A stretch of DNA of 64,000 nucleotides, taken from NCBI RefSeq assembly GCF_044704955.1, contig NC_091980.1, forward strand, positions 215,202,001 through 215,266,000, given 5' to 3'. Shown piece by piece: positions 1,774-44,429 of the stretch. The notes beneath the pieces were generated by a model. The model was given only the letters and a program-made list of their open reading frames with translations. It made no database searches and was not told the origin of the DNA. The stretch comes from Pristiophorus japonicus (lineage: Eukaryota). Made by a program: the position numbers and the translations under genes. Each line of letters begins with the position of its first letter. Position 1 is the stretch's first letter.

Positions 1774-2607
1774 GGGGCAGAAATTGCCCTCCACTAGAAA
1801 CGGGGCGCACCGACTGTTTTTGTTGTGTTCTGGCCGCCACAATGGATGCGACGCCCTATCCAGCGAAATTCAGCTCTTTGTCTTTTTATTTCGAGCGGGT
1901 CAGAAGTCGGTCATAAAGAGGGTGGAAGTAGGGGTGGGACGGAGTGACTGTCACTAGCGGGACGGAAGTGAGGGCAGGACGGAGAAGCCGCCGCTGTCAG
2001 TCATCAGTGCCGGGCTGGTGACATCTTCGCGCTGGCGCGTCACCACGTCTCTCCCCTTCAGTTAAAGGGGAGAACCACTGCAAACTCTGCGTTCATTTTA
2101 GTTAGGTCCACTGGGCCACCAGGGAGGGTTTCGGCCGGGCCAGCGGCCTGGCACCCAAGAGGGGGTGCCAGGCTGCCTGTTGGCGGCCCGGCCGAACCCG
2201 GGGACATAACTGTTGGGCCAACCTGGCAGTCGGCCGACAAAAAAGAAAATGCTGTTGCCAGCAGTGCCACCTCCCCTTTAAGGGCAGCCGCGCCGCCGAT
2301 CAACAAGGAACACCGACACAAAAAGCTGTTGGGCACCGAACGGCGGTCGCAAGACTTTTGGAGGTGAATTATGCTTCAGGGGCGGGACATCGATGGTGAG
2401 CGATCTGATGACGCACTTAGGAGGCTTTTGCAGCAGCGGGGCAGAAGTGGGGGAGCGGGGCAGATATGGTCACCACCAGAAAAACGCTCGAGGGCAATTG
2501 TGCAAACGACGGACATTCCACAAAAAATCGGCGGCCATTCCGCAATGAGCCCTGGCCACTGCTTTCCGGCCGCAAGAGGCCTTAACGAAAGGGGCAATTT
2601 CGGCACC
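1774..2607. mobile_element. Harbinger-type MITE
   Basis: TIRs GGGGCAGAAATTGCCC ... GGGCAATTTCGGCACC (14/16 match); GC-rich non-coding interior similar to 38008-38350 and 47263-47776. Confidence 0.7.
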
Positions 2608-2611
2608 AATA

Positions 2612-3449
2612 GGGCTCAATTTACCCCAATTATCAGCACAGTTTTTTTGGCGTGCACCGTTTTTTTGGGAGTAAATTAAAATCTCCAAGTTTCCGCGCCA
2701 GCGTAATTCACTAAGGTACAATTTTTTTATTTCATTGGGCGCGTAACCTGCCACTCGTGCCAATTCTGGCCATTTACACAAATTTGGCAAACTACGATTT
2801 TTGTGAAGACTGCATATGTGACCGCTCTGGGCTGTTAACAAAATCAATGCAGGTAAGAGAATCAGTGCAGAAGATCCAGTTCCACGGCCGGGACAGCAGC
2901 AGCAGAGAGGGGGAGAGAGAGTGGGGGAGGGGGTCATTCGGTCAGGGCTAGGAACGGCACCGGCTCCAGGGAAGGGAGGCCTTTCGGCCTGGGCTAGAGG
3001 CGACACCGGGCACCAGCGGGGAAGGAGGCCTTTCGGCCTGGGCTTGGAGCAGCACCAGCCGGGTGGGGGGGAGGGGGCCTTTCCAATTCAGGTTACAGGA
3101 TAAACTCTTGGCACAAAGACTCTTTAATATTTTCATGTTGGTAAGCTGCTGCCTTAAATAACTGCAATGTGTAAGGTGCTTGTGCAGGTTGCAGTGAGCT
3201 GGCCAGAATGTCTTGTATGTTTCACTTTCCAGCCTCAGCCCGCAGTATGTCCCGCGTTATCCTGGCAACCCGATCTTTTTGGCGCACATCTTAGGCTGCA
3301 CCCATAGAACTTAAGGACAATGTGCGCCACATTCACAAGTAAAAACGGGGAAACTTTCAACTTTTTTTCTGGCGTAGTCGGGCCCCCAAAAAATGGGCGT
3401 AACTCTTCAAATACGTTTAAAAAAAAAAGCATTGGAGAAAATTGAGCCC
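2612..3449. mobile_element. Harbinger-type MITE abutting the previous one
   Basis: TIRs GGGCTCAATTTACCCCAA ... TTGGAGAAAATTGAGCCC (16/18 match). Confidence 0.7.
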
Positions 3450-3597
3450 AGAGTAATTAGCCAGAGCGGCTGGTGAGGCAGAACGTCTTTAATACCGGTG
3501 GCTGATGGTGACATGGACTCTGTGCCTTACAGCCAGACTGTCGGAATGGCAGGTGACGCCCACAACTTTTTGAAGCATTTGGGAGAAGGATATTACC

Positions 3598-3910
3598 AGC
3601 CTGAGAGCATGTCCCAAGGTGCTTCACACTGAATTTCTTTTGAAATGTTGTCACATTGTTTTGTAGGCAAATGCAGAAGTGCACAACAAAGTGACAGAAA
3701 TAGTAATGAGATGAAGGACCAGTTTATTTCTTTTGAAGAAATATTTTACATCCATCTGAACAGGCCTTGGGTTAAGGTCTCATTCAAAGGAAAGGACCTC
3801 CAACAATGCAGAACTCCCTCATTAGTGCATTGAAGTACTCACTTCCTAGATTAGTGTTTGACCCGACAACCTTCTGACTCAGAAGCATGAGCGCGACCAC
3901 TGAACTAATT
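3598..3910 (-). mobile_element. tRNA-derived Deu-domain SINE (SacSINE1/AmnSINE1-like), degenerate
   Basis: The minus strand has a tRNA-like head (TTAGTTCAGTGGT...GAGTCAGAAGGTTGTCGGGTCAAA), a Deu-like core (TTGGAGGT...TTTGAATGAGACCTTAACCCAAGGCC) and a tail ...TGTGAAGCACCTTGGGACAT. Recognised from memory of the consensus. Confidence 0.6.
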
Positions 3911-3936
3911 TGACACTTGGCTAATGCAGTTTCATT

Positions 3937-6900
3937 GGGGTCAAGTTTCGGCCGCCCGCTAGAACGGCGCTCATCGGAGAGGCCCGCTTAATTTATAGAA
4001 CAAATAGATAGGCGTTTCTGCGGCCACAACCAAGACTCCAGGATGGTATGTTGCCTCCATGGTGCAAGGGTCAAGGATGTCTTGGAACGGGTGCAGGACA
4101 TTCTGAAAAGTGAGGGTGAACAGCCAGTTGTCGTGATGCATATAGGTACCAACGATATAGGTATAAAATGGGATGAGGTCTTAGGAGACGAATTTAGGGA
4201 GCTAGGAGTTAAATTAAAAAGTAGGACCTCAAAAGTAGTAATCTCAGGATTGCTACCAGTGCCACGTGCTAGTCAGTGTAGGAATTGCAGGATAGCTCAG
4301 ATGAATACATGGCTTGAGAAATGGTGCAGGGAGGGATTCAAATTCCTGGGACATTGGAACCGGTTCTGGGGGAGGTGGGACCAGTACAAACCGGACGGTC
4401 TGCACCTTGGCAGGATCGGAACCAAACTCCTTGGGGGAGTGTTTGGTAGTGCTGTTGGGGAGGAGTTAAACTAATATGGCAGGGGGATGGGAACCTATGC
4501 AGGGAGACAGAGGGAAATAGAAGGGGGCAGAAGCAAAAGATAGATAGGAGAATAGTAAAAGTGGAGGGCAGAAAAACGAAGGCAAAAAGCAAAAAAGGCC
4601 ACATTACAGCAAGATTCAAAAGGGGCAAAGTGTGTTAAAACGACAAGCCTGAAGCTCTGTGCCTCAATGCGAGGAGTATTCTGAATAAGGTGGATGAATT
4701 AACTGCGCGGATAGCAGTTAACGGATACGATGTGATTGGCATCACGGAGACATGGCTCCAGGGTGACCAAGGCTGGGAACTCAACATCCAAGGGTATTCA
4801 GCATTTAGGAAGGATAGACAGAAAGGAAAAGGAGACGGGGTGGCGTTGCTGGTTAAAGAGGAAATCAATGCAATTGTAAGGAAGGACATTAGCCTGGATG
4901 ATGTGGAATCAGTATGGGTGGAGCTGCAGAATTCCAAAGGGCAGAAAATGCTAGTGGGAGTTGTGTATAGACCACCAAATAGTAATAGTGAGGTTGGGGA
5001 CAGCATCAAACAAGAAATAAGGGATGTGTGCAATAAAGGTACAGCAGTAATCATGGGCGACTTTAATCTACATATAGATTGGGCTAACCTAACTAATAAC
5101 AATGCGGTGGACGCGGATTTCCTGGAGTGCATTAGAGATGGTTTTCTGGACCAATATGTCGAGGATCCAACTAGGGAGCTGGCCATCCGAGACTGGGTGA
5201 TGTGTAATGAGAAGGGATTAGTTAGCAATCTTGTTGTGCGAAGCCCTTTGGGGAAAAGTGACCATTATATGGTAGAGTTCCTTATTAAGATGGAGAGTGA
5301 CAAAGTTAATTCGGAAACTAGGGTCCTGAACTTAAGGAAAGGTAACTTCGACGGTATGAGGTGTGAATTGGCTAGAACAGACTGGCAAAGGATACTTAAA
5401 GGGTTGATGGTGGATAAGCAATGGCAAACATTTACAGATCACATAGATGAACTTCAGCAATTGTACATCCCTGTCTGGAGTAAAAATAAAACTGGGAAGG
5501 TGGCTCAACCATGGCTAACAAGAGAAATTAAGGATAGTGTTAAAATCAAGGAAGAGGCATATAAATTGACTAGAAAAAGCAACAAACAAACCTGAGGACT
5601 GGGAGAAATTTAGAATTCAACGAGGAGGACTAAGGGTTTATTAAGAAGGGGAAAATAGAGTACGAAAGGAAGCTTGCAGGGAACATAAGAGCTGACTGCA
5701 AAAGCTTCTATAAGTATAGGAAGAGAAAAAGATTAGTAAAGACAAACATAGGTCCCTTGCAGTCGGATTCAGGTGAATTTATAAAGAAATGGCAGACCAA
5801 TTGAACCAATACTTCGGTTCTGTCTTCACAAAGGAAGATACAAATAACCTTCCGAATGTACTAGGGGACAGTGGGTCTAGTAAGAATGAGGAACTGAAAG
5901 ATATCCTTATTAGGCGGGAAATTGTGTTCGGGAAATTGATGGGATAAATCCTCAGGTCCTGATAGTCTACATCCCAGAGTACTTAAGGAAGTGGTCCTAG
6001 AAATAGTAGATGCATTGGTGATCATTTTCCAACAGTCTATCAACTCTGGATCAGTTCCTATGGACTGGAGGGTAGCTAATGTAACGCCACTTTTTAAAAA
6101 AGGAGGGAGAGAGAAAGTGGGTAATTATAGACCGGTTAGCCTGACATCAGTGGTGGGGAAAATGTTGGAATCAATCATTAATGATGAAATAGCAGCCCAT
6201 TTGGAAAGCAGTGATAGGATCAGACCGAGTCAGCATGGATTTATGAAAGGGAAATCATGCTTGACGAATCTTCTGGAATTTTTTGAGGATGTAACTAGTA
6301 GAGTGAACAAGGGAGAACCAGTGGATGTGGCGTATTTGGACTTTCAAAAGGCTTTTGACAAGGTCCCGCACAAGAGATTGATGTACAAAATCAAAGCGCA
6401 TGGTATTTGGGGTAATGTACCGACGTGGATAGAGAACTGGTTGGCAGACAGGAAACAGAGAGTCTGGATAAACGGGTCCTTTTCAGAATGGCAGGCAGTT
6501 ACTAGTGGGGTGCCGCAGGGCTCAGTGCTGGGACCCCAGCTCTTTACAATATACATTAACGATTTGGATGAAGGGATAGAGTGTAATATCTCCAAGTTTG
6601 CGGATGACACTAAACTGGGTGGCGATGTGAGCTGTGAGGAGGACGCTAAGAAGCTGCAGGGTGACTTGGACCGATTAGGTGAGTGGGCAAATACATGGTA
6701 GATGCAGTATAATGTGGATAAATGTGAGATTATCCATTTTGGGGGCAAAAACATGAAGGCAGAATATTATCTGATTGGCGGCAGACTAGAAAAAGGGGAG
6801 GTGCAACGAGACCTGGGTGTCATGGTTCATCAGTCACTGAAAGTGGGCATACAGGTACCGCAGGCGGTAAAGAAGGCAAATGGTATGTTGGCCTTCATAG

Positions 6901-8097
6901 CTAGGGGTTTTGAATATAGGAGCAGGGAGGTCTTACCGCAGTTGTACAGGGCCTTAGTGAGGCCTCACCTGGAATATTGTGTTCAGTTTTGGTCTCCTAG
7001 TCTGAGGAAGGACATTCTTGCTATTGAGGGAGTGCAGCGAAGGTTCACCAGACTGATTCCAGGGATGGCTGGGCTGTCATATGAGGAAAGACTGGATCAA
7101 CTGGGCCTTTATTCACTGGCGTTTAGAAGGATTAGAGGGGATCTCATAGAATCATGTAAGATTCTGATGGGACTGGACAGGTTAGATGCGGGAAGAATGT
7201 TCTCAATATTGGGGAAGTCCAGAACTAGGGGACATAGTCTTAGGATAAGGAAGAAGACATTTAGGACTGAGATGAGGAGAAACTTCTTCACTCAGAGAGT
7301 TGTTGACCTGTGGAATTCCCTGCCTCAGAGAGTTGTTGATGCCAGTTTATTGGATATATTCAAGAGGGAGTTAGATATGGCCCTTACGGTTAAGGGGATC
7401 AAGGGGTATGGAGAGAAAGCAGGAAAGGGGTACTAAAGGAATGATCAGCCATGATCTTATTGAATGGTGATGCAGGCTCGAAGGGCCGAATGGCCTACTC
7501 CTGCACCTATTTTCTATGTTTCTATCTTCTTCTCTTCCCCACCCCTTCTTCTTCTCTTCCCCCCCATCTTCTTCTCTTTCCCCCCCCCCCCCCACCTTCT
7601 CCCTCGTGCTGCAGTAGGTGAGTAGAAATATTTTTTTATTTATTGAGTGATTTTTAATTTTTTTTTTAAATTTATTTGGATTGATTTATTGGTTTATTTA
7701 TTGATTTATTTATCATTTATTATTGATGATGGCTCTTTATTTGTAAAAGTGAAGTGTTTAATGTTTGTAAACCCCCCCCCCCCCACCCCGTTCCCTACTA
7801 GATTTGTAACCTGCGCCTGATTTTCTAAGTAGGCAAGGTTTTTCTGAGCATACAAAAATCTACACTTACTCCATTCTAAGTTAGTTTGGAGCAAGTTTTT
7901 GCTGCCTAAACTTGCAAAACAGGCGTAAGTGGCCATACATGCCTCCTTTTGAAAAAAAAATCTGTTCTAAAATGAAACTGTTCTAACTTACTAGAACTGG
8001 AGCAAACTAAAGGCCGAGAATTGCAATTTCTAAGATACTTCATTCTAAACTAGTTGCTCCAAAAAAATAGGTGCAACTCAGGCCGAAACTTGACCCC
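3937..8097. mobile_element. Harbinger-type MITE interrupted by a CR1 LINE
   Basis: Perfect 17-bp TIRs GGGGTCAAGTTTCGGCC ... GGCCGAAACTTGACCCC; flanks ATT/ATA. Confidence 0.8.
4004..7525 (+). mobile_element. CR1 LINE, 5'-truncated: ORF1 esterase end plus disrupted ORF2 (AP endonuclease, RT)
   Basis: ORF1 4043-4474 has SGNH motifs (HIGTND, DGLHL). ORF2 pieces include [36 protein letters not shown] and FADD, with frameshifts and stops; TTCTATGT tail. Confidence 0.95.
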
Positions 8098-8937: not shown

Positions 8938-11900
8938 TATATATATGTATACTATAGATATACTCTCTGTGTAGTCACTGTATAGTTACATAAGATGGAG
9001 ACTTGGTACCTCCGGTAAACATCAACAAGGTTCACACTGTATACACTATGCTGGCACCACCAGAGGGTGCAACTGGTGGAGGCCCAGGGGTCACCTGTAC
9101 ACCACAGATACCCAGGTATAAAAGGGAGTCCACTATGTGGTATCCTCACTCTGGAGTTATATTAAATGGACTAAGGTCACTACAGTTCAAGTACAATACT
9201 TTGCCTCATGGAGTCATTATCAGAGCATCTAAAGACATAACAACTGGTGATGAGATTACGGACTTTCGTGCAAATATGGCTAACCTTGGTACGTTGCAAC
9301 AGTTCACCGATGGGGATGATTGGGATGCCTTTGTGGGGAGGCTCGACCATTTCGTCACAGCCAACGACCTGGCAGGCGATGATCTGGCCACGTTGACTGA
9401 TCACAGCCAGACACCGGTTTTACACCCACCAATGGCCTGAAGGCCAGGAAATCGCGAAATATGCTGCAGACCTCAAGAGGCTGGCAGCACCATGAGATTT
9501 CGGCGGACACTTCACCGAAGCGATGCGGGATATCTTGGTCATCAGAATCGGCCACGAGGACCTTCTTCACAGGCTACTATCTGCGGATACCACAGTCACA
9601 CTGCAGAAGGCCATCACCATGAGCCAAGCATTCATGACCTCGACCTGCGGCTCTAGGCGGGTGACTCCTCCTCAGGACTCAAACCTGGCAAGTACGGTAC
9701 ACATACTGGTGCCTTTTAGAGGCAGGACTGTAGAACATGAATCTCCTCAGAGGAGACAGAACAGGCCTCCGAGTCCCTTAACTCTGAGTCCGCTGAGGGG
9801 GGCTAATTGGTTAGCACCATGCTGGCATTGCGGCGGAAATCAGCGGGCTCACCAGTTTTAAGGACTACGTGTGCAAAGGATGCAGCACAAAGGGCCGCCT
9901 CCAGCGAATGTGTAAAAGAAATAGGACTCACCGTGTTGATGAAGAGTCTGCAGAGGGCCATGAATCCAGCGCAGATTATGAAGAGGTGGTCAGAGAGGCA
10001 GCTCAGCCCCACGATGAGGTGTACGGAATGTTTACCTGAACCACAGATTGTTCCCCGTTGAGAATGGAAGTCGGGATAAAGGCGCTCCAGTCTTCATGGA
10101 GGTGGACACGGGGGCGAGCCAATCAGTAATGGCTTTTCAGAGTGACAGGCAGTGACTAGTGGAGTGCCGCAGGGCTCAGTGCTGGGACCCCAGCTCTTTA
10201 CAATATACATCAATGATTTAGATGAAGGAATTGAGTGTAATATCTCCAAGTTTGCAGATGACACTAAACTGGGTGGCGGTGTGAGCTGTGAGGGAGACGC
10301 TAAGAGGCTGCAGGGTGATTTGGACAGGTTAGGTGAGTGGGCAAATGCATGGCAGATGCAGTATAATGTGGATAAATGTGAGGTTATCCACTTTGGGGGC
10401 AAAAATGCGATGACAGAATATTATCTGAATGGCGGCAGATTAGGAAAAGGGGAGGTGCAATGAGACCTGGGTGTCATGGTACATCAGTCATTGAAAGTTG
10501 GCATACAGGTACAGCAGGCGGTGAAGAAGGCAAATGGTATGTTGGCCTTCATAGCTAGGGGATTTGCGTATAGGAGCAGGGAGGTCTTACTGCAGTTGTA
10601 CAGGGCCTTGGTGAGGCCTCACCTGGAATAGTGTGTTCAGTCTTGGTCTCCTAATCTGAGGAAGGACGTTCTTGCTATTGAGGGAGTGCAGCGAAGGTTC
10701 ACCAGACTGATTCCCGGGATAGCAGGACTGACATATCAGGAGAAACTGGATCGACTGGGCCTCAATTCATTGGAGTTTAGAAGGATGAGAGAGGATCTCA
10801 TAGAAATATACAAGATTCTGACGGGACGGGACAGGTTAGATACAGGTAGAATGTTCCCGATGTTGGGGAAGTCCAGAACCAGGTGACACAATCTTAGGAT
10901 AAGGGGTAGGCCATTTAGGACTGAGATGAGAAGAAACTTCTTCACTCAGAGAGTTGTTAACCTGTGGATCCCTGCCGCAGAGTCTCGTTGATGCCAGTTC
11001 ATTGGATATATTTAAGAGGGAGTTAGACATGGCCCTGACGGCTAAGGGGATCAAGGGATATGGAGAGAAAGCAGGAAAGGGATACTGAGGGAATGATAAG
11101 CCATGATCTTATTGAATGGTGGTGCAGGCTCGAAGGGCTGACTGGCCTATTCCTGCACATATTTTCTATGTTTCTATGAATCAAGAAGCCTTTGAGAGGC
11201 TATGGGACAATCAAACTGAACGACCCAAGTTGGTCCCGGTTGAAGCAAAGCTGCTCACCGAACCAATGAACTTATCCCAGTCATTGGTAGTGCGAATGTT
11301 AAGGTACTCCATGATGGCACGGTGCACAAGTTACCACTGTAGATTGTTGCAGGTGATGGACCAACGCTACTCGGAAGAAGGTGGATGGAGAAGATCCATT
11401 GGAGCTGGGAATATTTCATCCCTCCAGCGATCGACGGCCCCCATGCTCAGAGGCAAAGCAAGCCCCCACCTGAGGTTGGATTCAGCACCAGAGAGCAGAC
11501 CAGCACAGCACCCGAGGCACAGACCGCTCAGCACGACGCAGCTGGATCATCTCCGCGCAGATGATCCGAACGCACCTTCCAGGCTCTAGGGGCAGGACTC
11601 CGGAGGAAGAAAATCGCATCCAAAGGTGACTTCCCAGCTTCGGTAGCTGAACCCGGGGAGAAGAGGATCACAGCATCTGACATCGTGGATGGAAGAAAGA
11701 AGGTGCCCAAACCACGAGGTGAAGTGCTGAAGGAAAAGATGGCGGCAGCCAGACTACGAGGTGCAGCGCTGATGGAGCAACAAGTGGTACCAAGCAAAGA
11801 AGAGGATTGGGGTAAAGATAGCAAGGCTCTCTTAAAGGAGGCCAGCAACCCACCACACTTAAAGGGACAGTCCCACATTCTCACTCAATGTAATAACAAC

Positions 11901-12387
11901 TGTGAGCTAAATGTAAAGCTTGTAATTGATGATCAGAATTTTATACATGTAATAAGCAAAGAAAAGTTAACAGGGAGCAAGCCAAGCTAAAGCACAGCCA
12001 AGGTGCAAGGGCTATTGGCACTTAAGTCTGGGGAGAGCTAAGCCAGAGCACATAGTGTAAAGGTATTGGCACAAAAGACTTGGGAGAGTGATATATATGT
12101 ATACTATAGATATACTCTCTGTGTAGTCACTGTATAGTTGCATAAGATGGAGACTTGTTTACCGGAGGTACCATCAACAAGGTTCACACTGTATGCTGGC
12201 ACCACCAGAGGGTGCAACTGGTGGAGGCCCAGGGGTCACCTGTACACCACAGGTACCCAGGTATAAAAGGGAGTCCACCATGTGGTATCCTCATTCTGGA
12301 GTTATATTAAATGGACTAAGGTCATTACAGTTCAAGTACAATATTTTGCCTCGTGGAGTCATTATCAGAGCATCTAAAGACATAACA
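8938..12387 (+). mobile_element. Gypsy-type LTR element with gag and protease only (no RT, RNase H or integrase)
   Basis: LTRs 8938-9242 and ~12092-12387; 5-bp TSD CTGTG; degenerate PBS TGGTGATGAG; gag MANLGTLQQFTDGDDWDAFV, zinc knuckle CWHCGGN, protease VDTGASQS. Confidence 0.9.
10132..11178 (+). mobile_element. CR1 LINE 3' fragment inserted in the Gypsy protease
   Basis: RT motifs [10 protein letters not shown] and FADD; TTCTATGT tail. It interrupts aatcagtaATG|aatcaagaag, which is uninterrupted in the related copy at ~17055-17075. Confidence 0.92.
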
Positions 12388-12618
12388 CTGTGCTGCAAGT
12401 TTGTATGATTCTATGGGGACGAAATTCAGTCGTGCCTCATTTGGGACGGTAATTTTTCACTTTGAAAAAATTTAGCACCCAGCGAATTGCCTTGCCAAAT
12501 TGTGGGAAATTAGCCTTTTCGCCTCAAGACCTCAAGAGTGAAGGTGGCGGAGCGGCGGGTGGGGTGGGGATGGTAATTGAAGCGCTAATGACTTCAGCTG
12601 GGGACTGCAGGGGTGCTA

Positions 12619-15501
12619 TTCATAGCCACTTAGGAGCAGTCCCGTGCAATAAATTTTTAAGCCGGTTCACGGACTCCCAGGCCGCCTGCAATTTCTGCGG
12701 TCTGGAAGAGTCCGTGTTCCATGTTTTTATTGAATGCACAAGGTTGCAGCCCCTGTTCCACTATTTGAAGGGGCTGCTCCTGAAATTCTGGCTGCACTTC
12801 AGTCCCACTCTCCTGATCTTTGGGCACCCTGTGCGGAGGGGAGCGGGTAGGTCCGAAGGCCTCCTCGTAGGACTGCTCCTGGGCACGGCCAAGGGTGCCA
12901 TCAGCCGGTCCAGGCAGCGGGCGGTCGAGGGGGTCGTTCAACCTGACTGCCTGCCTCTCTTCCGCTCTTACATCCGGTCCAGGGTGTCCTTGGAGATGGA
13001 GCACGCGGTGTCCACCGGTACGCTCGCGGCCTTCCGTGAGAGGTGGGCACCGGAGGGACTGGAGTGCATCATCACGCCCGGCAACCAAATTTTAATTTGA
13101 TTTTACGTTTTAAAGTTTAATTTGTTTTAATTGCCGGTGCTTTTAGTGTCCCCCTCCCCTTTTATAGGGGGCACTGGGAAAATTTGATTTTAGCGCCCCA
13201 AAAAAAAAAAAAAAAAAATAATTTAAAAAAAAAAGGGGCCTTGAAAATGTCTGCTGTGTCACCCAGGTCGGGTGGCATGGTCTTAATGTTTTATGTTTTG
13301 CAGGTAAACTCAAAAGAGTTTCATAGCCACTTAGGAGCAGTCCCGTGCAATAAATTTTTAAGCCGGTTCACGGACTCCCAGGCCGCCTGCAATTTCTGCG
13401 GTCTGGAAGAGTCCGTGTTCCATGTTTTTATTGAATGCACAAGGTTGCAGCCCCTGTTCCACTATTTGAAGGGGCTGCTCCTGAAATTCTGGCTGCACTT
13501 CAGTCCCACTCTCCTGATCTTTGGGCACCCTGTGCGGAGGGGAGCGGGTAGGTCCGAAGGCCTCCTCGTAGGACTGCTCCTGGGCACGGCCAAGGGTGCC
13601 ATCAGCCGGTCCAGGCAGCGGGCGGTCGAGGGGGTCGTTCAACCTGACTGCCTGCCTCTCTTCCGCTCTTACATCCGGTCCAGGGTGTCCTTGGAGATGG
13701 AGCACGCGGTGTCCACCGGTACGCTCGCGGCCTTCCGCGAGAGGTGGGCACCGGAGGGACTGGAGTGCATCATCACGCCCGGCAACCAAATTTTAATTTG
13801 ATTTTACGTTTTTTAAGTTTAATTTGTTTTAATTGCCGGTGCTTTTAGTGTCCCCCTTCCCTTTTATAGGGGGCACTGGGGAAAATTGTGATTTTAGTGC
13901 CCAAAAAAAAACCAAAAAAGAAAAACACAAAAAAAAACAAAAAAAAAAGGGGGGGGAAAAAAAAAGGGCCTTGTAAATGTCTGGAGTGTCACCCAGGTCG
14001 GGTGGCACCGTTTAATGTTTTTATGTTTTGCAGGTAAACTCAAAAGAGTTTCATAGCCACTTCGGAGCAGTCCCGTGCAATAAATTTTTAAGCCGGTTCA
14101 CGGGCTCCCAGGCCGCCTGCAATTTCTGCGGTCTGGAAGAGTCCATGTTCCATGTTTTTACCGAATGCACGAGGTTGCAGCCCCTGTTTTATTATTTAAA
14201 GGGGCTGCTCCTGAAATTCTGGCTGCTCTTCAGTCCCACACTCCTGATCTGTGGGCACCCTGTGCGGAGGGGAGCGGGTAGGTCCGAGGGCCTCCTTGTA
14301 GGACTGCTCCTGGGCACGGCCAAGGGTGCCATCAGCCGGTCCAGGCAGCGGGCGGTCGAGGGGGTCGTTCAACCTGACTGCCTGCCTCTCTTCCGCTCTT
14401 ACATCCGGTCCAGGGTGTCCTTGGAGATGGAGCACGCGGTGTCCACCGGTACGCTCGCGGCCTTCCGCGAGAGGTGGGCACCGGAGGGACTGGAGTGCAT
14501 CATCACGCCCGGCAACCAAATTTTAATTTGATTTTACGTTTTAAAGTTTAATTTGTTTTAATTGCCGGTGCTTTTAGTGTCCCCCTTCCCTTTATAGGGG
14601 GCACTGGGGAAAAATTGTGATTTTAGTGCCCCAAAAAAAAACCAAAAAAAAGAAAAACACAAAAAAAAAGGAAAAAACTTGTAAATGTCTGGTGTGTCAC
14701 CCAGTTCGGGTGGCACGGTTTAATGTTTTGTTTTACAGATAAACTCTAAAAGAGTTTCATAGCCACTTAGGAGCAGTCCCATGCAATAAATTTTTAAGCC
14801 GGTTCACGGGCTCCCAGGCCGCCTGCAATTTCTGCGGTCTGGAAGAGTCCGTGTTCCACATTTTTACCGAATGCACGAGGTTGCAGCCCCTGTTTTATTA
14901 TTTAAAGGGGCTGCTCCTGAAATTCTGGCTGCACTTCAGTCCCACACTCCTGATCTGTGGGCACCCTGTGCGGAGGGGAGCGGGTAGGTCCGAGGGCCTC
15001 CTTGTAGGACTGCTCCTGGGCACGGCCAAGGGTGCCATCAGCCGGTCCAGGCAGCGGGCGGTCGAGGGGGTCGTTCAACCTGACTGCCTACCTCTCTTCC
15101 GCGCGTACATCCACGCCAGGGTGTCCTTGGAGATGGAGCACGCGGTGTCCACCGGTACGCTCGCGGCCTTCCGCGAGAGGTGGGCACCGGAGGGACTGGA
15201 GTGCATCATCACGCCTGGCAACCAAATTTTAATTTGATTTTATGTTTTAAAGTTTAATTTGTTTTAATTGCCGGTGTTTTTAGTGTCCCCCTCCCCTTTT
15301 ATAGGGGGCACTTGAAGGAAAAAAATATGATTTTAGTGCCCCAAAAAAAACCTTTTTAAAAAAAAACAACAAAAAACCCCCCCAAAAAAAACCACAAAAA
15401 AAGGGCCTTGGAAATGTTTGGTGTGCCCCCCCAGATCGGGGGGACACGATTTAATGATTTAATGTTTTAATTTTCTCCCAAAAAAAATTCATAGCCACTT
15501 A
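12619..15501 (+). mobile_element. Tandem array of four Tx1-clade non-LTR retrotransposon 3' ends separated by a 13-14 bp direct repeat
   Basis: TTCATAGCCACTT at 12619, 13320, 14050, 14756 and 15488 (periods 701, 730, 706, 732). Each unit encodes GAVPCN...CNFCGLEESVFH.F.ECTRLQPL...FWLHFSP..., a CCHC zinc finger closely resembling the recalled C-terminus of Xenopus Tx1 ORF2p, followed by an A-rich 3'UTR. Confidence 0.9.
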
Positions 15502-15802
15502 CACAAATTCAGCTGAGTTCCATTCAGTAATCAGCCTTCAATCCTTGACTCCAGCTCCATCTGGCTCTTAAAGGGGAGGTCATTTGAACCTGCTGCTGCT
15601 CATTTACAGCATTGCTGAAGTCAGCCACTCATCTCTGGAGCTGAGGAAGCTTGTGAAATGCCTGCTGGAAATCCCCCTTCAAGGGAGCACGCTACAAGAT
15701 TCAGAAATGTGACTCTGGAGGCATTGGTGGGGACACTTGAGACCAAGAGGGAGTCCCTGTTCCCTGCATCGGAAGGAGGCCATCACCGCAGTTTTTCCGT
15801 GC

Positions 15803-18800
15803 TGTCATGTATCCTACATGTGTACTGTTGATACCATTACACATGATGTACCACCAGAGGACACTGCAGTGGGAGACTTGTAGGTTACCTGTACAGGTGT
15901 GCCAGGCCGACTATAAAAGGCAGGCCACCATGTGTGATCCTCACTCTGGTGTTACAAATAAAGGACTAAGGCCACTACAGTTCAAGTCCAATATTTTGCC
16001 TCGTGGAGTAATTATCAGAGCATCTAAAGACATAACAATTGGCGACGAGATTACGGACCTTCACGTGAAAATGGCTAACTTTGGTACGTTGCAGCAGTTT
16101 GTCGATGGTGATGATTGGGACGCCTTTGTAGAGAGGCTCGACCATTTCTTCACAGCAAACGACCTGGCAGGCGACAATCCGGCCACACTGGTTGATAAGC
16201 GCAGAGCTATCCTGCTAACCAGTTGTGGGCCCACTGTCTATGGCCTCGTCAGGGACTTGCTGGCAGCAGCGAAGACAACGACCAAGACATACGAGGAGCT
16301 TGTAATGCTGATCCAAGAACAACTCAAGCCCAAAGAGAGCATCCTCATAGCCAGACACCGGTTTTATACACACCGACGGCCCGAAGGCCAGGAAATCATG
16401 AAAAATGCTGCAGAGCTCAGCAGGTTGGCGGCACCATGTGATTTCAGCAACCACCTCACTGAAGCGCTGCTGGATATCTTTGTCATTGGAATCGGCCATG
16501 AGGGCCTTCTTCATAAGCTGCTGTCTGTGGACACCACAGTCACACTGCAGAAGGCCATCGCTGTGAGCCAGGCATTCATGACCTCTAGGCGGATGACTCA
16601 TCCTCAGGACTCAAACCCGGCAAGTACTGTACAAAGAATGACGCCTTTTACAGGCTGGACTGTAGAATGTGAATCTTCTCAGGGAAGAGAGAACAGGCCC
16701 CTGACTCCCTTAACTCAGAATCCGCCAAGGGGGTCTAAGCAAGTAGCTCCATGCTGGCGATGCGGAGGGAATCGCAGGGCTCACCAGTACCGTTTTAAAG
16801 TCCGTGTGTAAAGGCTGCAGCACAAAGGGCCACCTCCAGCGAATGTGTAAAAGAAATATGACTCTGTGTTGATGAAGAGTCTGCAGATGGCCATGAATCC
16901 AGCGCAGATTATGAAATGATAGTCAGAGAGGCAGCTCAGCCTCACAATGAGATATATGGCATGTTTACCTGCACCACCGAATGTTCTCCGTTGAGGATAG
17001 AAGTCGAGATAAATGGCATTCCAGTCTTCATAGAAGTTGACACGGGGGCGAACCAATCAGTAATGAATCAAGAAGCCTTTCAGAGGCTATGGGACAATCA
17101 GGCTGAACGACCCAATTTGGTCCTGGTTCAGGCAAAGCTGCGCACCTATATCAATGAACTCGTACCAGTCGTTGGTAGTGCAGATGTAAAGGTACTCCAT
17201 GATGGTGCGATGCACAAGTTACCCCTGTGGATTGTTGCAGGTGATGGATCAACGCTACTCGGAAGAATGTGGATGGAGAAGATCCATTGGAGTTGGGAAG
17301 ATTTCATCCCTCCAGCGATCGACATCGCCCACGCTCAGACGCAAAGCAAGCCCTCACCTGAGGTTAGATCCGGCACCAGAGAGCAGACCAGCACAGCACC
17401 CGAGGCACAGACCGCTCAGCACGGTTGCGTGGAGATGATCCAGCTGAGACAACCCAAACGCACCTTCCAGGCTCCTGTGGCAGGACTCCGGAGGAAGAAA
17501 CTTGGATCCAAAGGCGACTTCCCAGCTTCGGTGGCCGAACCCAGAGAGAAGAGGATCACCGCAGCTGACATCGTGGATGGAAGAAAGATGGCAGCAGCCA
17601 GACCACGAGGTGCAGCGCTGATGGAGCAACACGTGGTACCCAGCGAAGAAGAGGATTGGGGTAAAGATAGCAAGGCTCCCTTAAAGGAGGTCAGCAACCA
17701 ACCACACTTAAAGGGGTAGTTCCACATTCTCAATCAATGTAATAACAACTGTGAGTTAGAGGTAAAATGCGTAATTGATGATCAGAGTTGTGTACATGCA
17801 ATAAGCAAAGAAAAGTCTTGCAATTGCAATCGGAGCTACAGTTTATTACAGCTACAGGAAGTTGTTGAGGCCAATTCACTAAATATATTCAAAAAGGAGT
17901 TAGATGTAGTCCTTACTACTAGGGGGATCAAGGGGTATGGCGAGAAAGCAGGAATGGGGCACTGAAGTTGCATGTTCAGCCATGAACTCATTGAATGGCA
18001 GTGCAGGCTCGAAGGGCCGAATGGCCTACTCCTGCACCTATTTTCTATGTTTCTATGTTTCTAATGAAACATTGTGCGATATAGGATTTCAATTGCATTC
18101 AGTTAATGCAGCGGGCAAACACCCATCGGGAGCACACAGGTCCAGCGATCTACCCAATGCTGTAGCCTGCATCCCTGGGACGAGAGTAATGCACCATGGA
18201 GTGTGGCCACAAGCAGCTAATACACACACGCTGCAGAGCAAGCGATCTCAGGAGGGCAACGGCATCGGTATCGATACCCTGCCCCTGATCGTCTCCATCT
18301 CAGAGGCACCTGATGGCACCAACCCCCATGAGCCTGAAAGAGTAAACTGCGCTAAGGCGCAGCCCCCAGACTCTATTGCCACCAAGGCTACACCTGGGAA
18401 TGAAGGATCCCCCGCAAAGGTTCTCCGAAATGGGACCGGGACCAGCCAGGATCCCAAACCAATAACGCCCAGGCAAGCGAGTCAGCATTTCCCTGTGCAC
18501 TGCTAGACGACTGCTCCTCAGGGAGCAGCAGCGACCCGGGGCACAAGGAGAGAACAGGGAGGTTACAGGCATCTGTGAACCTGTCCGATCCTAGGAGCAA
18601 CGGCACAAGCCCCGAGAGCAGGCAACTTGAGCCAACTGGGTTCCCATTGCCAGCACTGGGCACCGCGCCACCACCAGACTACCTGGACACCATCCAGCAG
18701 TTCTGGCACTAGTATGTACCTCACCAGTCAAAAGTACTTGCCTCACAACGGTACCACGAATGTAATGCTGTAAATGCAAATTTTTCTTTTTGGACTTGAA

Positions 18801-19277
18801 TGTAGATGAATGTAATGAGCCACCAGCACAATCTTTAGGTCGGGGGCGGGGAGGCGGGGGGGGCGGGAAGAGAGAATGAGAATGGAGTGGTCATGGACGC
18901 ACAAACAAAAACCACCAGCACCTCTACTGCCATCGAAACACCACCCACTCACCCAAGATGGAAACGACCCTCCAAGGGTCAACCAGATAGAGCTAAGCCC
19001 AGTGCACAGTCAATGCATGAAGATGATTTGCACGAAGGACTTGGGGGAGAGTGATGCCATGTAACCTACATGTTTACTGCTGGTACCATTACACATGATG
19101 TACCACCAGAGGGCACTGCAATGGGAGACTTGTAAGTTGTGCCAGGCTTAGTATAAAAGGCAGGCCACCATGTGTGATCCTCATTCTGGAGTTACAAATA
19201 AAGGACGAAGATTACTACAGTTCAAGTGCAACACATTGCCTTGTAGAGTCATTATCAGAGCATCTAAAGACATAACA
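15803..19277 (+). mobile_element. Gypsy-type LTR element with gag and protease only
   Basis: TG...CA LTRs 15803-16037 and 19055-19277; TSD CGTGC; PBS TGGCGACGAG (complementary to the tRNA-Ser(GCT) 3' end); PPT GGGGGAGAG; gag with CWRCGGN, protease EVDTGANQS; no RT or integrase motifs. Confidence 0.92.
17857..18062 (+). mobile_element. Short CR1 3' tail inside the LTR element
   Basis: Matches the CR1 3' end at 61890-62092, ending ttctatgtttctatgtttct. Confidence 0.9.
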
Positions 19278-22915: not shown

Positions 22916-23255
22916 AGACCACCTGCAGACGATGGTGAACTCCCAGAGAGATCATGTGGATCCAGACCTCATGACGCTGGTCATGGGAAACATGGCAACT
23001 TCTATTGCAGCACAGGCAGAAGCAACTCAATGTCTTAGTGCTGTAATGCAGACAATGGTTGGTAGCATCGAAGCTCATACTGCTCTTATGCAGTCTCAGG
23101 TTGATGCCACACAACGTCTTGGTGCTGTCATGCAGTCAGTGAGTGCTGGCATCAAGTCTCAGACTGCTCTCATGCAGTCTCAGCTGGATGCCACACATGC
23201 TCTCACTGCTGCCATCACCGCTGGGTCCACCACAGTCCACCGAGGATCTCACGGT

Positions 23256-41571: not shown

Positions 41572-44429
41572 CATAAGTAACATAAGACATAAGAATTAGG
41601 AACAGGAGTAGGCCATCTAGTCCCTCGAGCCTGCTCCGCCATTCAACAAGATCATGGCTGATCTGGCCGTGGACTCAGCTCCACTTACCCACCCGCTCCC
41701 CATAACCCTTAATTCCCTTATTGGTTAAAAATCTATCTATCTGTGACTTGAATACATTCAATGAGCTAGCCTCAACTTCTTCCTTGGGCAGAGAATTCCA
41801 CAGATTCACAACCCTCTGGGAGAAGAAATTCCTTCTCAACTCGGTTTTAAATTGGCTCCCCCGTATTTTGAGGCTGTGCCCCCTAGTTCTAGTCTCCCTG
41901 ACCAGTGGAAACAACCTCTCTGCCTCTATCTTGTCTATCCCTTTCATTATTTTAAATGTTTCTATAAGATTACCACTCATCCTTCTGAACTCCAATGAGT
42001 AAAGACCCAGTCTACTCAATCTATCATCATAAGGTAACCCCCTCATCTCCGGAATCAGCCTAGTGAATCGTCTCTGTACCCCCTCCAAAGCTAGTATATC
42101 CTTCCTTAAGTAAGGTGACCAAAACTGCATGCAGTACTCCAGGTGCGGCCTCACCCAATACCCTATACAGTTGCAGCAGGACCGCCCTGCTTTTGTACTC
42201 CATCCCTCTCGCAATGAAGGCCAACATTCCATTCGCCTTCCTGATTACCTGCTGCACCTGCAAACTAACTTTTTGGGATTCATGCACAAGAACCCCCAGG
42301 TCCCTCTGCACCTCAACATGTTGTAATTTCTCCCCATTCAAATAATATTCCCTTTTACTGTTTTTTTTTCCCCAAGGTGGATGACCTCACAGTTTCCGAC
42401 ATTGTATTCCAGCTGCCAAACCTTAGCCCATTCGCTTAACCTATCTAAATCTCTTTGCAGCCTCTCTGTCTCCTCTACACAACCCGCTCTCCCACTAATC
42501 TTTGTGTCATCTGTAAATTTTGTTCCACTACACTCTGTCCCCTCTTCCAGGTCATCTATCTATATTGTAAACAGCACCGATCCCTGTGGCATACCACTAA
42601 CCACCGATTTCCAACCCGAAAAGGACCCATTTATCCCGACTCTCTGCTTTCTGTTAGCCAGCCAATTCTCGATCCATGCTGATACATTTCCTCAAACTCC
42701 GCGTACCTTTATCTTCTGCAGTAACCTTTTGTGTGGTACCTTATCGAATGCCTTTTGGAAATCTAAATACACCACATCCATCGGTACACTTCTATCCACC
42801 ATGCTCGTTATATCCTCAAAGAATTCCAGTAAATTAGTTAAACATGATTTCCCCTTCATGAATCCATGCTGCGTCTGCTTGATTGCACTATTCCTATCTA
42901 GATGTCCCGCTATTTCTTCCTTAATGATAGTTTCAAGCATTTTCCCCACTACAGATGTTAAACTAACCGGCCTATAGTTACCTGCCTTTTGTCTGCCCCC
43001 TTTTTTAAACAGAGGCGTTACATTAGCTGCTTTCCAATCCGCTGGTACCTCCCCAGAGTCCAGAGAATTTTGATAGATTATAACGAATGCATCTGCTATA
43101 ACTTCCACCATCTCTTTTAATACCCTGGGATGCATTTCATCAGGACCAGGGGACTTGTCTACCTTGAGTCCCATTAGCCTGTTCAGCACTACCCCGCTAG
43201 TGATAGTGATTGTCTCAAGGTCCTCCCTTCCCACATTCCTGTGACCAGCAATTTTTGGCATGGTTTTTGTGTCTTCCACTGTAAAGACCGAAGCAAAATT
43301 ATTGTTTAAGGTCTCAGCCATTTCCACATTTCCTATTATTAAATCCCCCTTCTCATCTTCAAAGGGACCAACATTTACTTAGTCACTCTTTTCCGTTTTA
43401 TATGTCTGTAAAAGCTTTTACTATCCGTTTTTATGTTTTGCGCAAGTTTACCTTCGTAATCTATCTTTCCTTTCTTTATTGCTTTCTTAGTCATTCTTTG
43501 TTGTCGTTTAAAATTTTCCCAATCTTCTATTTTCCCGCTAACCTTGGCCACCTTATACGCATTGGTTTTTAATTTGATACTCTCCCTTATTTCCTTGGTT
43601 ATCCACGGCTGGTTATCCCTTCTCTTACCGCCCTTTTTCACTGGAATATATTTTTGTTGAGCACTATGAAAGAGCTCCTTAAAAGTCCTCCACTGTTCCT
43701 CAATTGTGCCACCATTTAGTCTGTGTTTCCAGTCTACTTTAGCCAACTCTGCCCTCATCCCACTGTAATCCCCTTTGTTTAAGCATAGTACGCTCGTTTG
43801 AGACACTACTTCCTCACCCTCAATCTGTATTACAAATTAAACCATACTGTGATCACTCATTCCGAGAGGATCTTTGACTAGGAGATCGTTTATTATTCCT
43901 GTCTCATTACACAGGACCAGATCTAAGATAGCTTGCTCCACTGTAGGTTCTATAACATACTGTTCTAAGAAACAATCCCGTATGCATTCTATGAATTCCT
44001 CCTCCAGGCTACCCTGTGCGATTTGATTTGACCAATCGATATGTAGGTTAAAATCCCCCATGATTACTGCCGTTCCTTTTTCACATGCCTCCATTATTCC
44101 CTTGATTATTGCCCGCCCCACCGTGAAGTTATTATTTGGGGGCCTATAAACTACGCCCACCAGTGACTTTTTCCCCTTCCTATCTCTAATCTCCACCCAC
44201 AATGATTCAACATTTTGTTCATTAGAGCCAATATTGTCTCTCACAACTGCCCTGATATCATCCTTTATTAACAGAGCTAACCCACCTCCTTTCCCTTCTT
44301 GTCTATCTTTCCGAATCGTCAGATACCCCTGTATGTTTAATTCCCAGTCTTGGCCACCCTGCAACCACGTTTCTGTAATGGCCACCAAATCATACCCATT
44401 TGTAATGATTTGTGCCGTCAACTCATTTA
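41572..44429 (-). mobile_element. CR1 LINE, nearly complete but disrupted ORF2
   Basis: [32 protein letters not shown] and RPHLEYC motifs; CTTATGT-type tail. Confidence 0.95.

Follow-up and report, generated by a model that had tools for sequence, protein, structure and literature searches.

Neighbouring LINE units from different subfamilies share one 5' truncation in tandem arrays: a probable role for annealing to the resident copy

Why should four LINE copies that stand head to tail, and whose tails belong to four different dispersed subfamilies, all begin at the same internal base? The question is raised by an array at positions 12619..15501 on the plus strand of the window, by which we mean the whole 64,000-nucleotide stretch of Pristiophorus japonicus DNA analysed here. 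The array comprises four 5'-truncated Tx1-clade LINE units of 687-718 nt each, separated and flanked by five copies of the target-site sequence TTCATAGCCACTTA, for which the chance expectation in the window is 0.47. All four units start with GGAGCAGTCCC (at 12633, 13334, 14064 and 14770), so that the single internal ORF2 start claimed for them in an earlier sequence-only reading is borne out. That reading described each start as following the target plus one base; its start positions hold, but the additional base is simply the last base of a 14-bp duplication, A in general and C before unit 3. The array also runs on well past 14790, where it had been thought to end, to 15501.

The 5'-most duplication, at 12619..12632, has only TTCAT in common with the family's usual CR1 site, and further copies lie at 13320..13333, 14050..14063, 14756..14769 and 15488..15501, the last being followed by host sequence. 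The copy at 14050..14063 has one mismatch, with C instead of A as its last base. The element itself has a C upstream of its start, and the C at 14063 may be either a mutation or a remnant of cDNA; the cDNA remnant was set aside as a candidate, since unit 3 carries resident alleles directly after 14063. The site of the array lies in a host repeat (15488..15800, plus strand), a second copy of which, 85% identical, is occupied at the same position by an element of the unit 4 subfamily (L096). In reading frame the units begin at 'GAVPCN' of ORF2, encoding its last 155 residues, and their common start corresponds to base 6485 of a 7205-nt intact copy (L191). Short-read contigs span the outer left (12363-12661) and outer right (15458-15533) junctions with 0 differences; these contigs are probably from the assembled sample and hence not independent, and none covers the whole array. 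No empty site or shorter allele of the array was found among the joints listed for the contigs of four public runs, which break at repeats, and the runs of a second organism gave matches to dispersed element sequence only. Two related LTR-retrotransposon-like elements, both of decayed appearance, flank the array at 9047-12387 and 15842-19277, with their repeats at 9047, 12192, 15842 and 19082, and with a gag-like frame and a weak aspartyl protease match at 16862-17716. Further along, at 23028-23215, is an 84-nt tandem repeat that has the look of a reading frame and is possibly part of a DNA transposon gene.

The intact relative, L191, carries a 698-codon ORF1 and a 1299-codon ORF2, the latter with Exo_endo_phos (E 5e-10) and RVT_1 (E 7e-38) domains and a zf-RVT match below the cut-off; for the fragment in the window itself, Pfam yielded nothing beyond a zf-RVT match under the threshold. 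The best named match of the intact ORF2 is the Xenopus 'Transposon TX1 uncharacterized 149 kDa protein' (P0007, UniRef), at 49% identity over 100% coverage, and partial protein matches at 69-71% come from cartilaginous fishes. Judged by its ORF2 domains, its closest named element and its target, the family is predicted to be a Tx1-clade non-LTR retrotransposon. Its usual target is one antisense site in the ORF2 of a CR1-type LINE, and a site of this type directly follows the last 3' end in 63 of the 75 loci sampled; duplication gaps are mostly 11-16 nt in the sample, compared with 14 bp at the array. Targets differ between subfamilies (loci L001-L043 compared with L044-L103), being TGTAGAGCTGTTG, in a repeat, for the older subfamily, TTCATGCACAAGG, in CR1, for the young one and TTCTGTGGACAAGC for the subfamily of unit 4. 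All three subfamilies end in AAAAGAGT or AAAATAGT, which points to a switching of target inside one family. By eye, the element tail resembles the CR1 sequence upstream of the target. The window also contains, at 41689-42534, a CR1-type LINE, antisense on the plus strand and 92-97% identical to both flanks of a Tx1 insertion at another locus (L180); at about 42260-42279 the target alone lies between the two flank matches, apparently an empty canonical site. Elsewhere in the genome a tandem run of some 55 kb (G000:C1:9710175-9765263) consists mostly of full-length 7.2-kb copies, several of them with intact ORF1 and ORF2.

Uniform length and a uniform start inside the array are what would be seen if a fixed non-autonomous element of ~0.7 kb, or a read-through RNA whose 5' end carried the target, had been mobilised as a unit. 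Both options had been raised in the sequence-only reading, and we give them scarcely any credence. Exact-pattern searches of the 5.9-Gb genome recover 1299 copies of a 29-mer from the unit start, and in all 30 of the other copies that were fetched the element goes on upstream, none of them starting at the base used in the array. The junction of target and start has four genome matches, all four in this array, and the starts at 56 other loci range from 2090 to 7127. The same 5' end at many independent loci, which would define a non-autonomous element, is thus not found. Nor is an internal Pol III promoter: a strict scan of the units for A or B boxes gave no match, in agreement with the sequence-only remark that none was evident, although as a test this is weak. 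The fixed element is refuted by the confinement of the junction to this locus and by the other copies, and read-through RNA is unsupported as a source of whole units, given a locus-only junction and a different tail on each unit.

The tails in fact come from four subfamilies. Those of units 1-4 have 803, 681, 176 and 73 exact copies in the genome, the window's own included; units 1-3 belong to a large young family sharing a 21-mer with 10,525 matches, and unit 4 to another. Alleles were counted for each tail group in 18, 17, 18 and 24 copies respectively, with the own locus and duplicate loci left out. By these counts the body of unit 4 (14770..15487, plus strand) agrees with its own subfamily; this unit has the most private changes of the array and is the presumed founder. 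Unit 3 (14064..14755, plus strand) is a chimera, with a front of unit 4 type and the rest, including its 176-copy tail, from a young subfamily. It is of unit 4 type from base 1 to at least base 234, two rare shared alleles included, and in this part agrees with unit 4 at 12 sites where units 1 and 2 differ; it is identical to unit 2 over bases 235-468, and from base 334 on it is of young-family type, tail included. At bases 98, 135, 177, 188 and 234 its alleles are missing from all of the 14-16 informative copies with the unit 3 tail. The base 188 allele common to units 3 and 4 gives a 30-mer with 16 genome matches, two of them here and 14 in distant older copies.

The other two young-family units carry a shorter trace of the older type. 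Base 9 is C in all four units and in 11 of 17 copies with the unit 4 tail, compared with G in 40 of 40 copies with the tails of units 1-3; in a second, partly overlapping sample, none of 84 dispersed young-family units has C. By base 41 both unit 1 and unit 2 show the young-family type, and each younger unit must therefore keep at least nine front bases of the older type. Unit 2 (13334..14049, plus strand; 681-copy tail) has at least its first 9 bases of unit 3/4 type and a young-family body from base 41 at the latest, and differs from unit 4 at 22 of 468 coding bases. Unit 1 (12633..13319, plus strand), which retains the base 9 of unit 4, consists of the last 155 codons of the Tx1 ORF2 and a 3' UTR with the tail of the 803-copy subfamily. 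It shows a single difference from unit 2 in 468 coding nt, the near-identity being limited to the coding part, and its body may have been copied almost whole. A simple unequal crossover between units 2 and 4 was considered as the origin of unit 3 and rejected, as it predicts the tail of unit 2, which unit 3 lacks; a plain tandem duplication or satellite was also rejected, the four tails being those of four dispersed subfamilies. Pure DNA-level duplicates, whose variants should be absent from dispersed subfamilies, had been allowed for at the outset, but both the tails and the body variants do occur in dispersed copies.

Is the shared start peculiar to this array? The survey comprised 100 stretches of 10 kb, of which 92 cover the first 100 listed 21-mer matches, one extends an array and seven were hand-picked for close matches. 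Both starts could be seen in 84 adjacent pairs. Of these, 14 are full-length with full-length, 18 full-length with truncated, 43 truncated with the same start and nine truncated with different starts. When the hand-picked loci are excluded, 27 of 35 truncated adjacent pairs, in 15 of 22 loci, share their start. Between loci only 5 of 1766 pairs of truncated starts agree within 3 nt, a rate that places the common start of the array units far beyond chance. Starts are thus constant within arrays and different between loci, the outcome that the sequence-only reading had linked to copying from the neighbouring unit, and this third of its options is supported. Eight of the 35 truncated pairs lack a common start, the upstream unit being the longer in six. 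Arrays of an older subfamily likewise repeat a locus-specific start (L004, L007, L008, L010, L023, L028, L035, L036, L037, L040 and L043, from the first 30 loci and nine longer stretches). Additions that are not part of the element also recur at the junctions of same-start units. In one array (L248) each of the four units, including a last one from an older subfamily, has in front of it a mini-unit that carries a second duplication; in another (L023) a 5S rRNA copy precedes both same-start units. The latter locus contains full-length 5S rRNA copies at 1282-1400 and 2212-2328, each fused to a short tail of element type, with the target duplication on either side. At a further locus (L273, G000:C1:256524276-256534275), nine units of ~290 nt have one start (reference base 6898) but tails of several kinds, and every junction has the duplication in a form peculiar to the locus.

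A truncation hot spot, whether due to microhomology with the target, RNA structure or a break, would have to have been hit independently four times at the array, which we judge very improbable. A few starts do recur between loci (4962, 6928 and others, making up the 5 of 1766 pairs), and some first junctions have 1-3 nt of microhomology; a clean score was possible for only ~6 of 20 arrays (0-3 nt), as the last flank was often outside the view. At the array junction, however, there is no microhomology, the target ending in CTTA and continuing with C, and the element having GCAC upstream and continuing with G. None of the 30 other copies starts here, and a hot spot cannot account for the fact that three young-family units have the base 9 of unit 4. 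Given this inherited base and the chimeric unit 3, the explanation is already largely refuted.

A shared start would also follow if a unit were first duplicated at the DNA level, by slippage or by unequal exchange between target duplications, and if cDNA or gene conversion from a dispersed copy then gave it a new 3' part, the start never being remade. This would yield the same chimeras. It would also fit the finding of more units per occupied site than random re-hitting gives, the block duplications seen at several loci (L244, L270, L277, L196 and probably L037) and one pair (L193) that shares more than 3 kb under different tails, with nine rare alleles in common over 3.2 kb. Replacement would, however, be required after nearly every duplication, since tail ends are identical in none of the 39 complete same-start pairs, 36 of which differ by at least two substitutions. 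It would also need to take in nearly the whole unit: among 14 unselected pairs of units of 1.5-4.4 kb, 13 have their first mismatch within 168 nt, and the divergence, 1.3-3.6%, resembles that of unrelated copies. In a set of 26 same-start pairs with starts before 6600, six of them from hand-picked loci, neighbour divergence past the first 100 nt has a mean of 1.70%, compared with a background of 1.78%, and the first 100 nt contain 1.46 mismatches compared with 2.67.

The polarity of the arrays is likewise not predicted by duplication followed by replacement. When the two outer units of 14 arrays are compared, rare alleles are fewer in the leftmost than in the rightmost in 11, the other three being ties (p 0.001; two arrays hand-picked), so that in all 11 untied arrays the 5'-most unit looks the youngest. 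Of 22 untied adjacent pairs, only 15 have the greater number of private alleles in the downstream unit, so that internal insertion or noise blurs the polarity at this level. One rare allele is involved in 554 of 729 neighbour mismatches, a share that plain ageing would also give. For the array at 12619..15501, duplication followed by replacement would call for three duplications, each with its own replacement, and a unit 4 that was never touched. We therefore regard it as unlikely as the general explanation. Later DNA-level duplication clearly also happens, as seen from the alternating tails of L270 and L277, the repeated block of L244 and the 0 mismatches over 1.8 kb in L196.

The array itself presents one shared start, four tails, a chimeric unit 3 and the base 9 of unit 4 in units 1-3. 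We consider it likely that elements re-insert at the 5' duplication of a resident, the new cDNA annealing to the first bases of that resident, and that unequal exchange later expands some arrays; such exchange is not needed for the array described here. Unit 4 would have inserted first, with a chance truncation. Later elements would nick the 5' duplication and reverse-transcribe beyond the point at which the resident starts. The upstream DNA end would then bear the target and the first k bases of the resident, which a more distant nick, branch migration or extension along that copy could supply, and could anneal in register to the homologous cDNA. Surplus cDNA would be trimmed, and second-strand synthesis would set the old start on a new body. 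We estimate k at 9-40 nt in unit 2 and at 234-333 nt in unit 3; in unit 1 it is at least 9 nt and may take in most of the coding part. As neither an intermediate nor a population allele has been seen, we infer the order and timing of the insertions.

Could the resident instead have served as a template? Reverse transcriptase or the cDNA end might switch to the resident, as sister chromatid DNA or a local read-through transcript, copy its 5' end and the target, and anneal through the 14-bp duplication. Such a switch accounts for the long inherited tracts of unit 3, of L193 and of the 5S block in L023, where the 5S rRNA also indicates that the family forms RNA chimeras. It could, however, fall anywhere along the resident, so that long shared 5' tracts should be frequent, and most of those in long units are short. 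Although it may explain a minority of long tracts, and is hard to tell from annealing by sequence, as a general account we think it improbable.

If the new cDNA anneals to the resident, then the cDNA may usually be long and the joining step may select the truncation according to what the upstream end can pair with. A resident would then dictate the length of the next insertion, full-length copies would breed full-length copies and occupied sites would be favoured. We put this extension forward tentatively, as something that may well prove wrong. Were cDNA length set by the polymerase, short units should often lie upstream of long residents, but a shorter unit directly upstream of a resident of 1.8-4.7 kb (starts 2537-5426) is found at none of 11 loci, compared with 65-82% of 34 solo units that are shorter than such residents (nominal P 3e-7). 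Full-length units lie upstream of full-length copies in 14 of 25 cases, and six of 34 solos are full-length (Fisher p 0.005). Age differences and later internal insertions are uncontrolled in this comparison of solos with arrays, which is hence a lead. Full-length and truncated units stand side by side in 18 of 84 adjacent pairs. By exact-pattern count, empty canonical sites number 21,915, outer 3' junctions 6,088 and element ends at a duplication 15,664. Occupied sites thus have up to ~2.6 ends each, an upper estimate since more cases escape the longer pattern, though empty sites are plentiful. The array's own site is non-canonical for the young family, yet it holds three young-family tails.

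We conclude that the pattern is a real, genome-wide variant of a known process. It is still an open question why LINE insertions are mostly 5'-truncated and how the 5' end comes to be joined. The arrays, of which this one genome has thousands, amount to a natural experiment, since one and the same endonuclease site has been used both beside a homologous copy and where there is none. If the reading given here is true, it is the joining step and not the copying enzyme that determines where a copy is cut short. Homology beside the nick would then determine insertion length, with a bearing on RNA-templated gene insertion by R2-like proteins. A shared truncation in tandem would cease to prove DNA duplication, removing a standard inference, and mosaic subfamilies could arise by this means, along with ordered arrays that can be read from 3' to 5' as a record of which lineages were active in turn.

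The separate parts of this process are known already, both stacking at a duplication (PMC2718515, PMC4494074, PMC5932611) and annealed junctions (PMC11331408). Their combination, with the annealed junction fixing a truncation, was not found in print, nor was any report of neighbours from different sources sharing a truncation, in a literature search that covered subscription journals thinly; absence from print is not thereby established. The text available to us of the preprint 10.1101/2024.12.14.628481 had no bearing on the point. Like Xenopus Tx1L, the element has an APE endonuclease and a reverse transcriptase, with an ORF2 49% identical, and inserts within another transposable element, which for Tx1L is Tx1D (PMC4494074); the usual target differs, being here the antisense site in a CR1-type LINE ORF2, and for Tx1L the text available to us gives no account of inherited truncation points. 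Similar in arrangement are the R1 tandems of Drosophila 28S rDNA, which are head to tail with a 14-bp duplication between units and are ascribed to insertion at the resident's 5' duplication (PMC2718515). For R1, top-strand cleavage is described as flexible, with microhomology or annealing priming the second strand, a step on which many questions are said to remain (PMC2718515). As in the R1 type, there is a duplication at every junction (five for four units) and growth on the 5' side (11 of 11 untied arrays); independent 5' truncations are not the rule here, with 27 of 35 pairs sharing a start. R1 belongs to another clade and has another target, its identical junctions are ascribed to amplification of one event, and the available text of that report describes no neighbours that share a truncation under different bodies (PMC2718515).

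In R2 insertions with 5' junctions of the 'Anneal' type, 11 bp of homology with the upstream DNA can be enough for the cDNA to anneal, giving precise and uniform joints (PMC11331408). There the homology is that of rRNA at the RNA's 5' end, whereas here we infer that it comes from the resident 3' of the nick and so fixes an internal truncation. The tandems of SINEU-3 and Tx1-Mar in crocodilians resemble the present arrays in their Tx1-driven sequential insertion round one duplication within another transposon, but consist of short SINE units, and no shared internal truncation is mentioned in the text available to us (PMC4494074). The double-insertion tandems of Drosophila are similar in that one site receives repeated insertions and unequal exchange expands the tandem later (PMC5932611). 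It is the shared truncation that sets the present arrays apart from such known double-insertion tandems. In Drosophila, distinct 5' truncations, as in 6 of 10 jockey dimers, were taken as the mark of independent insertion (PMC5932611); applied to the array described here, with its different source tails and common truncation, the same test would miscall the units as duplicates.
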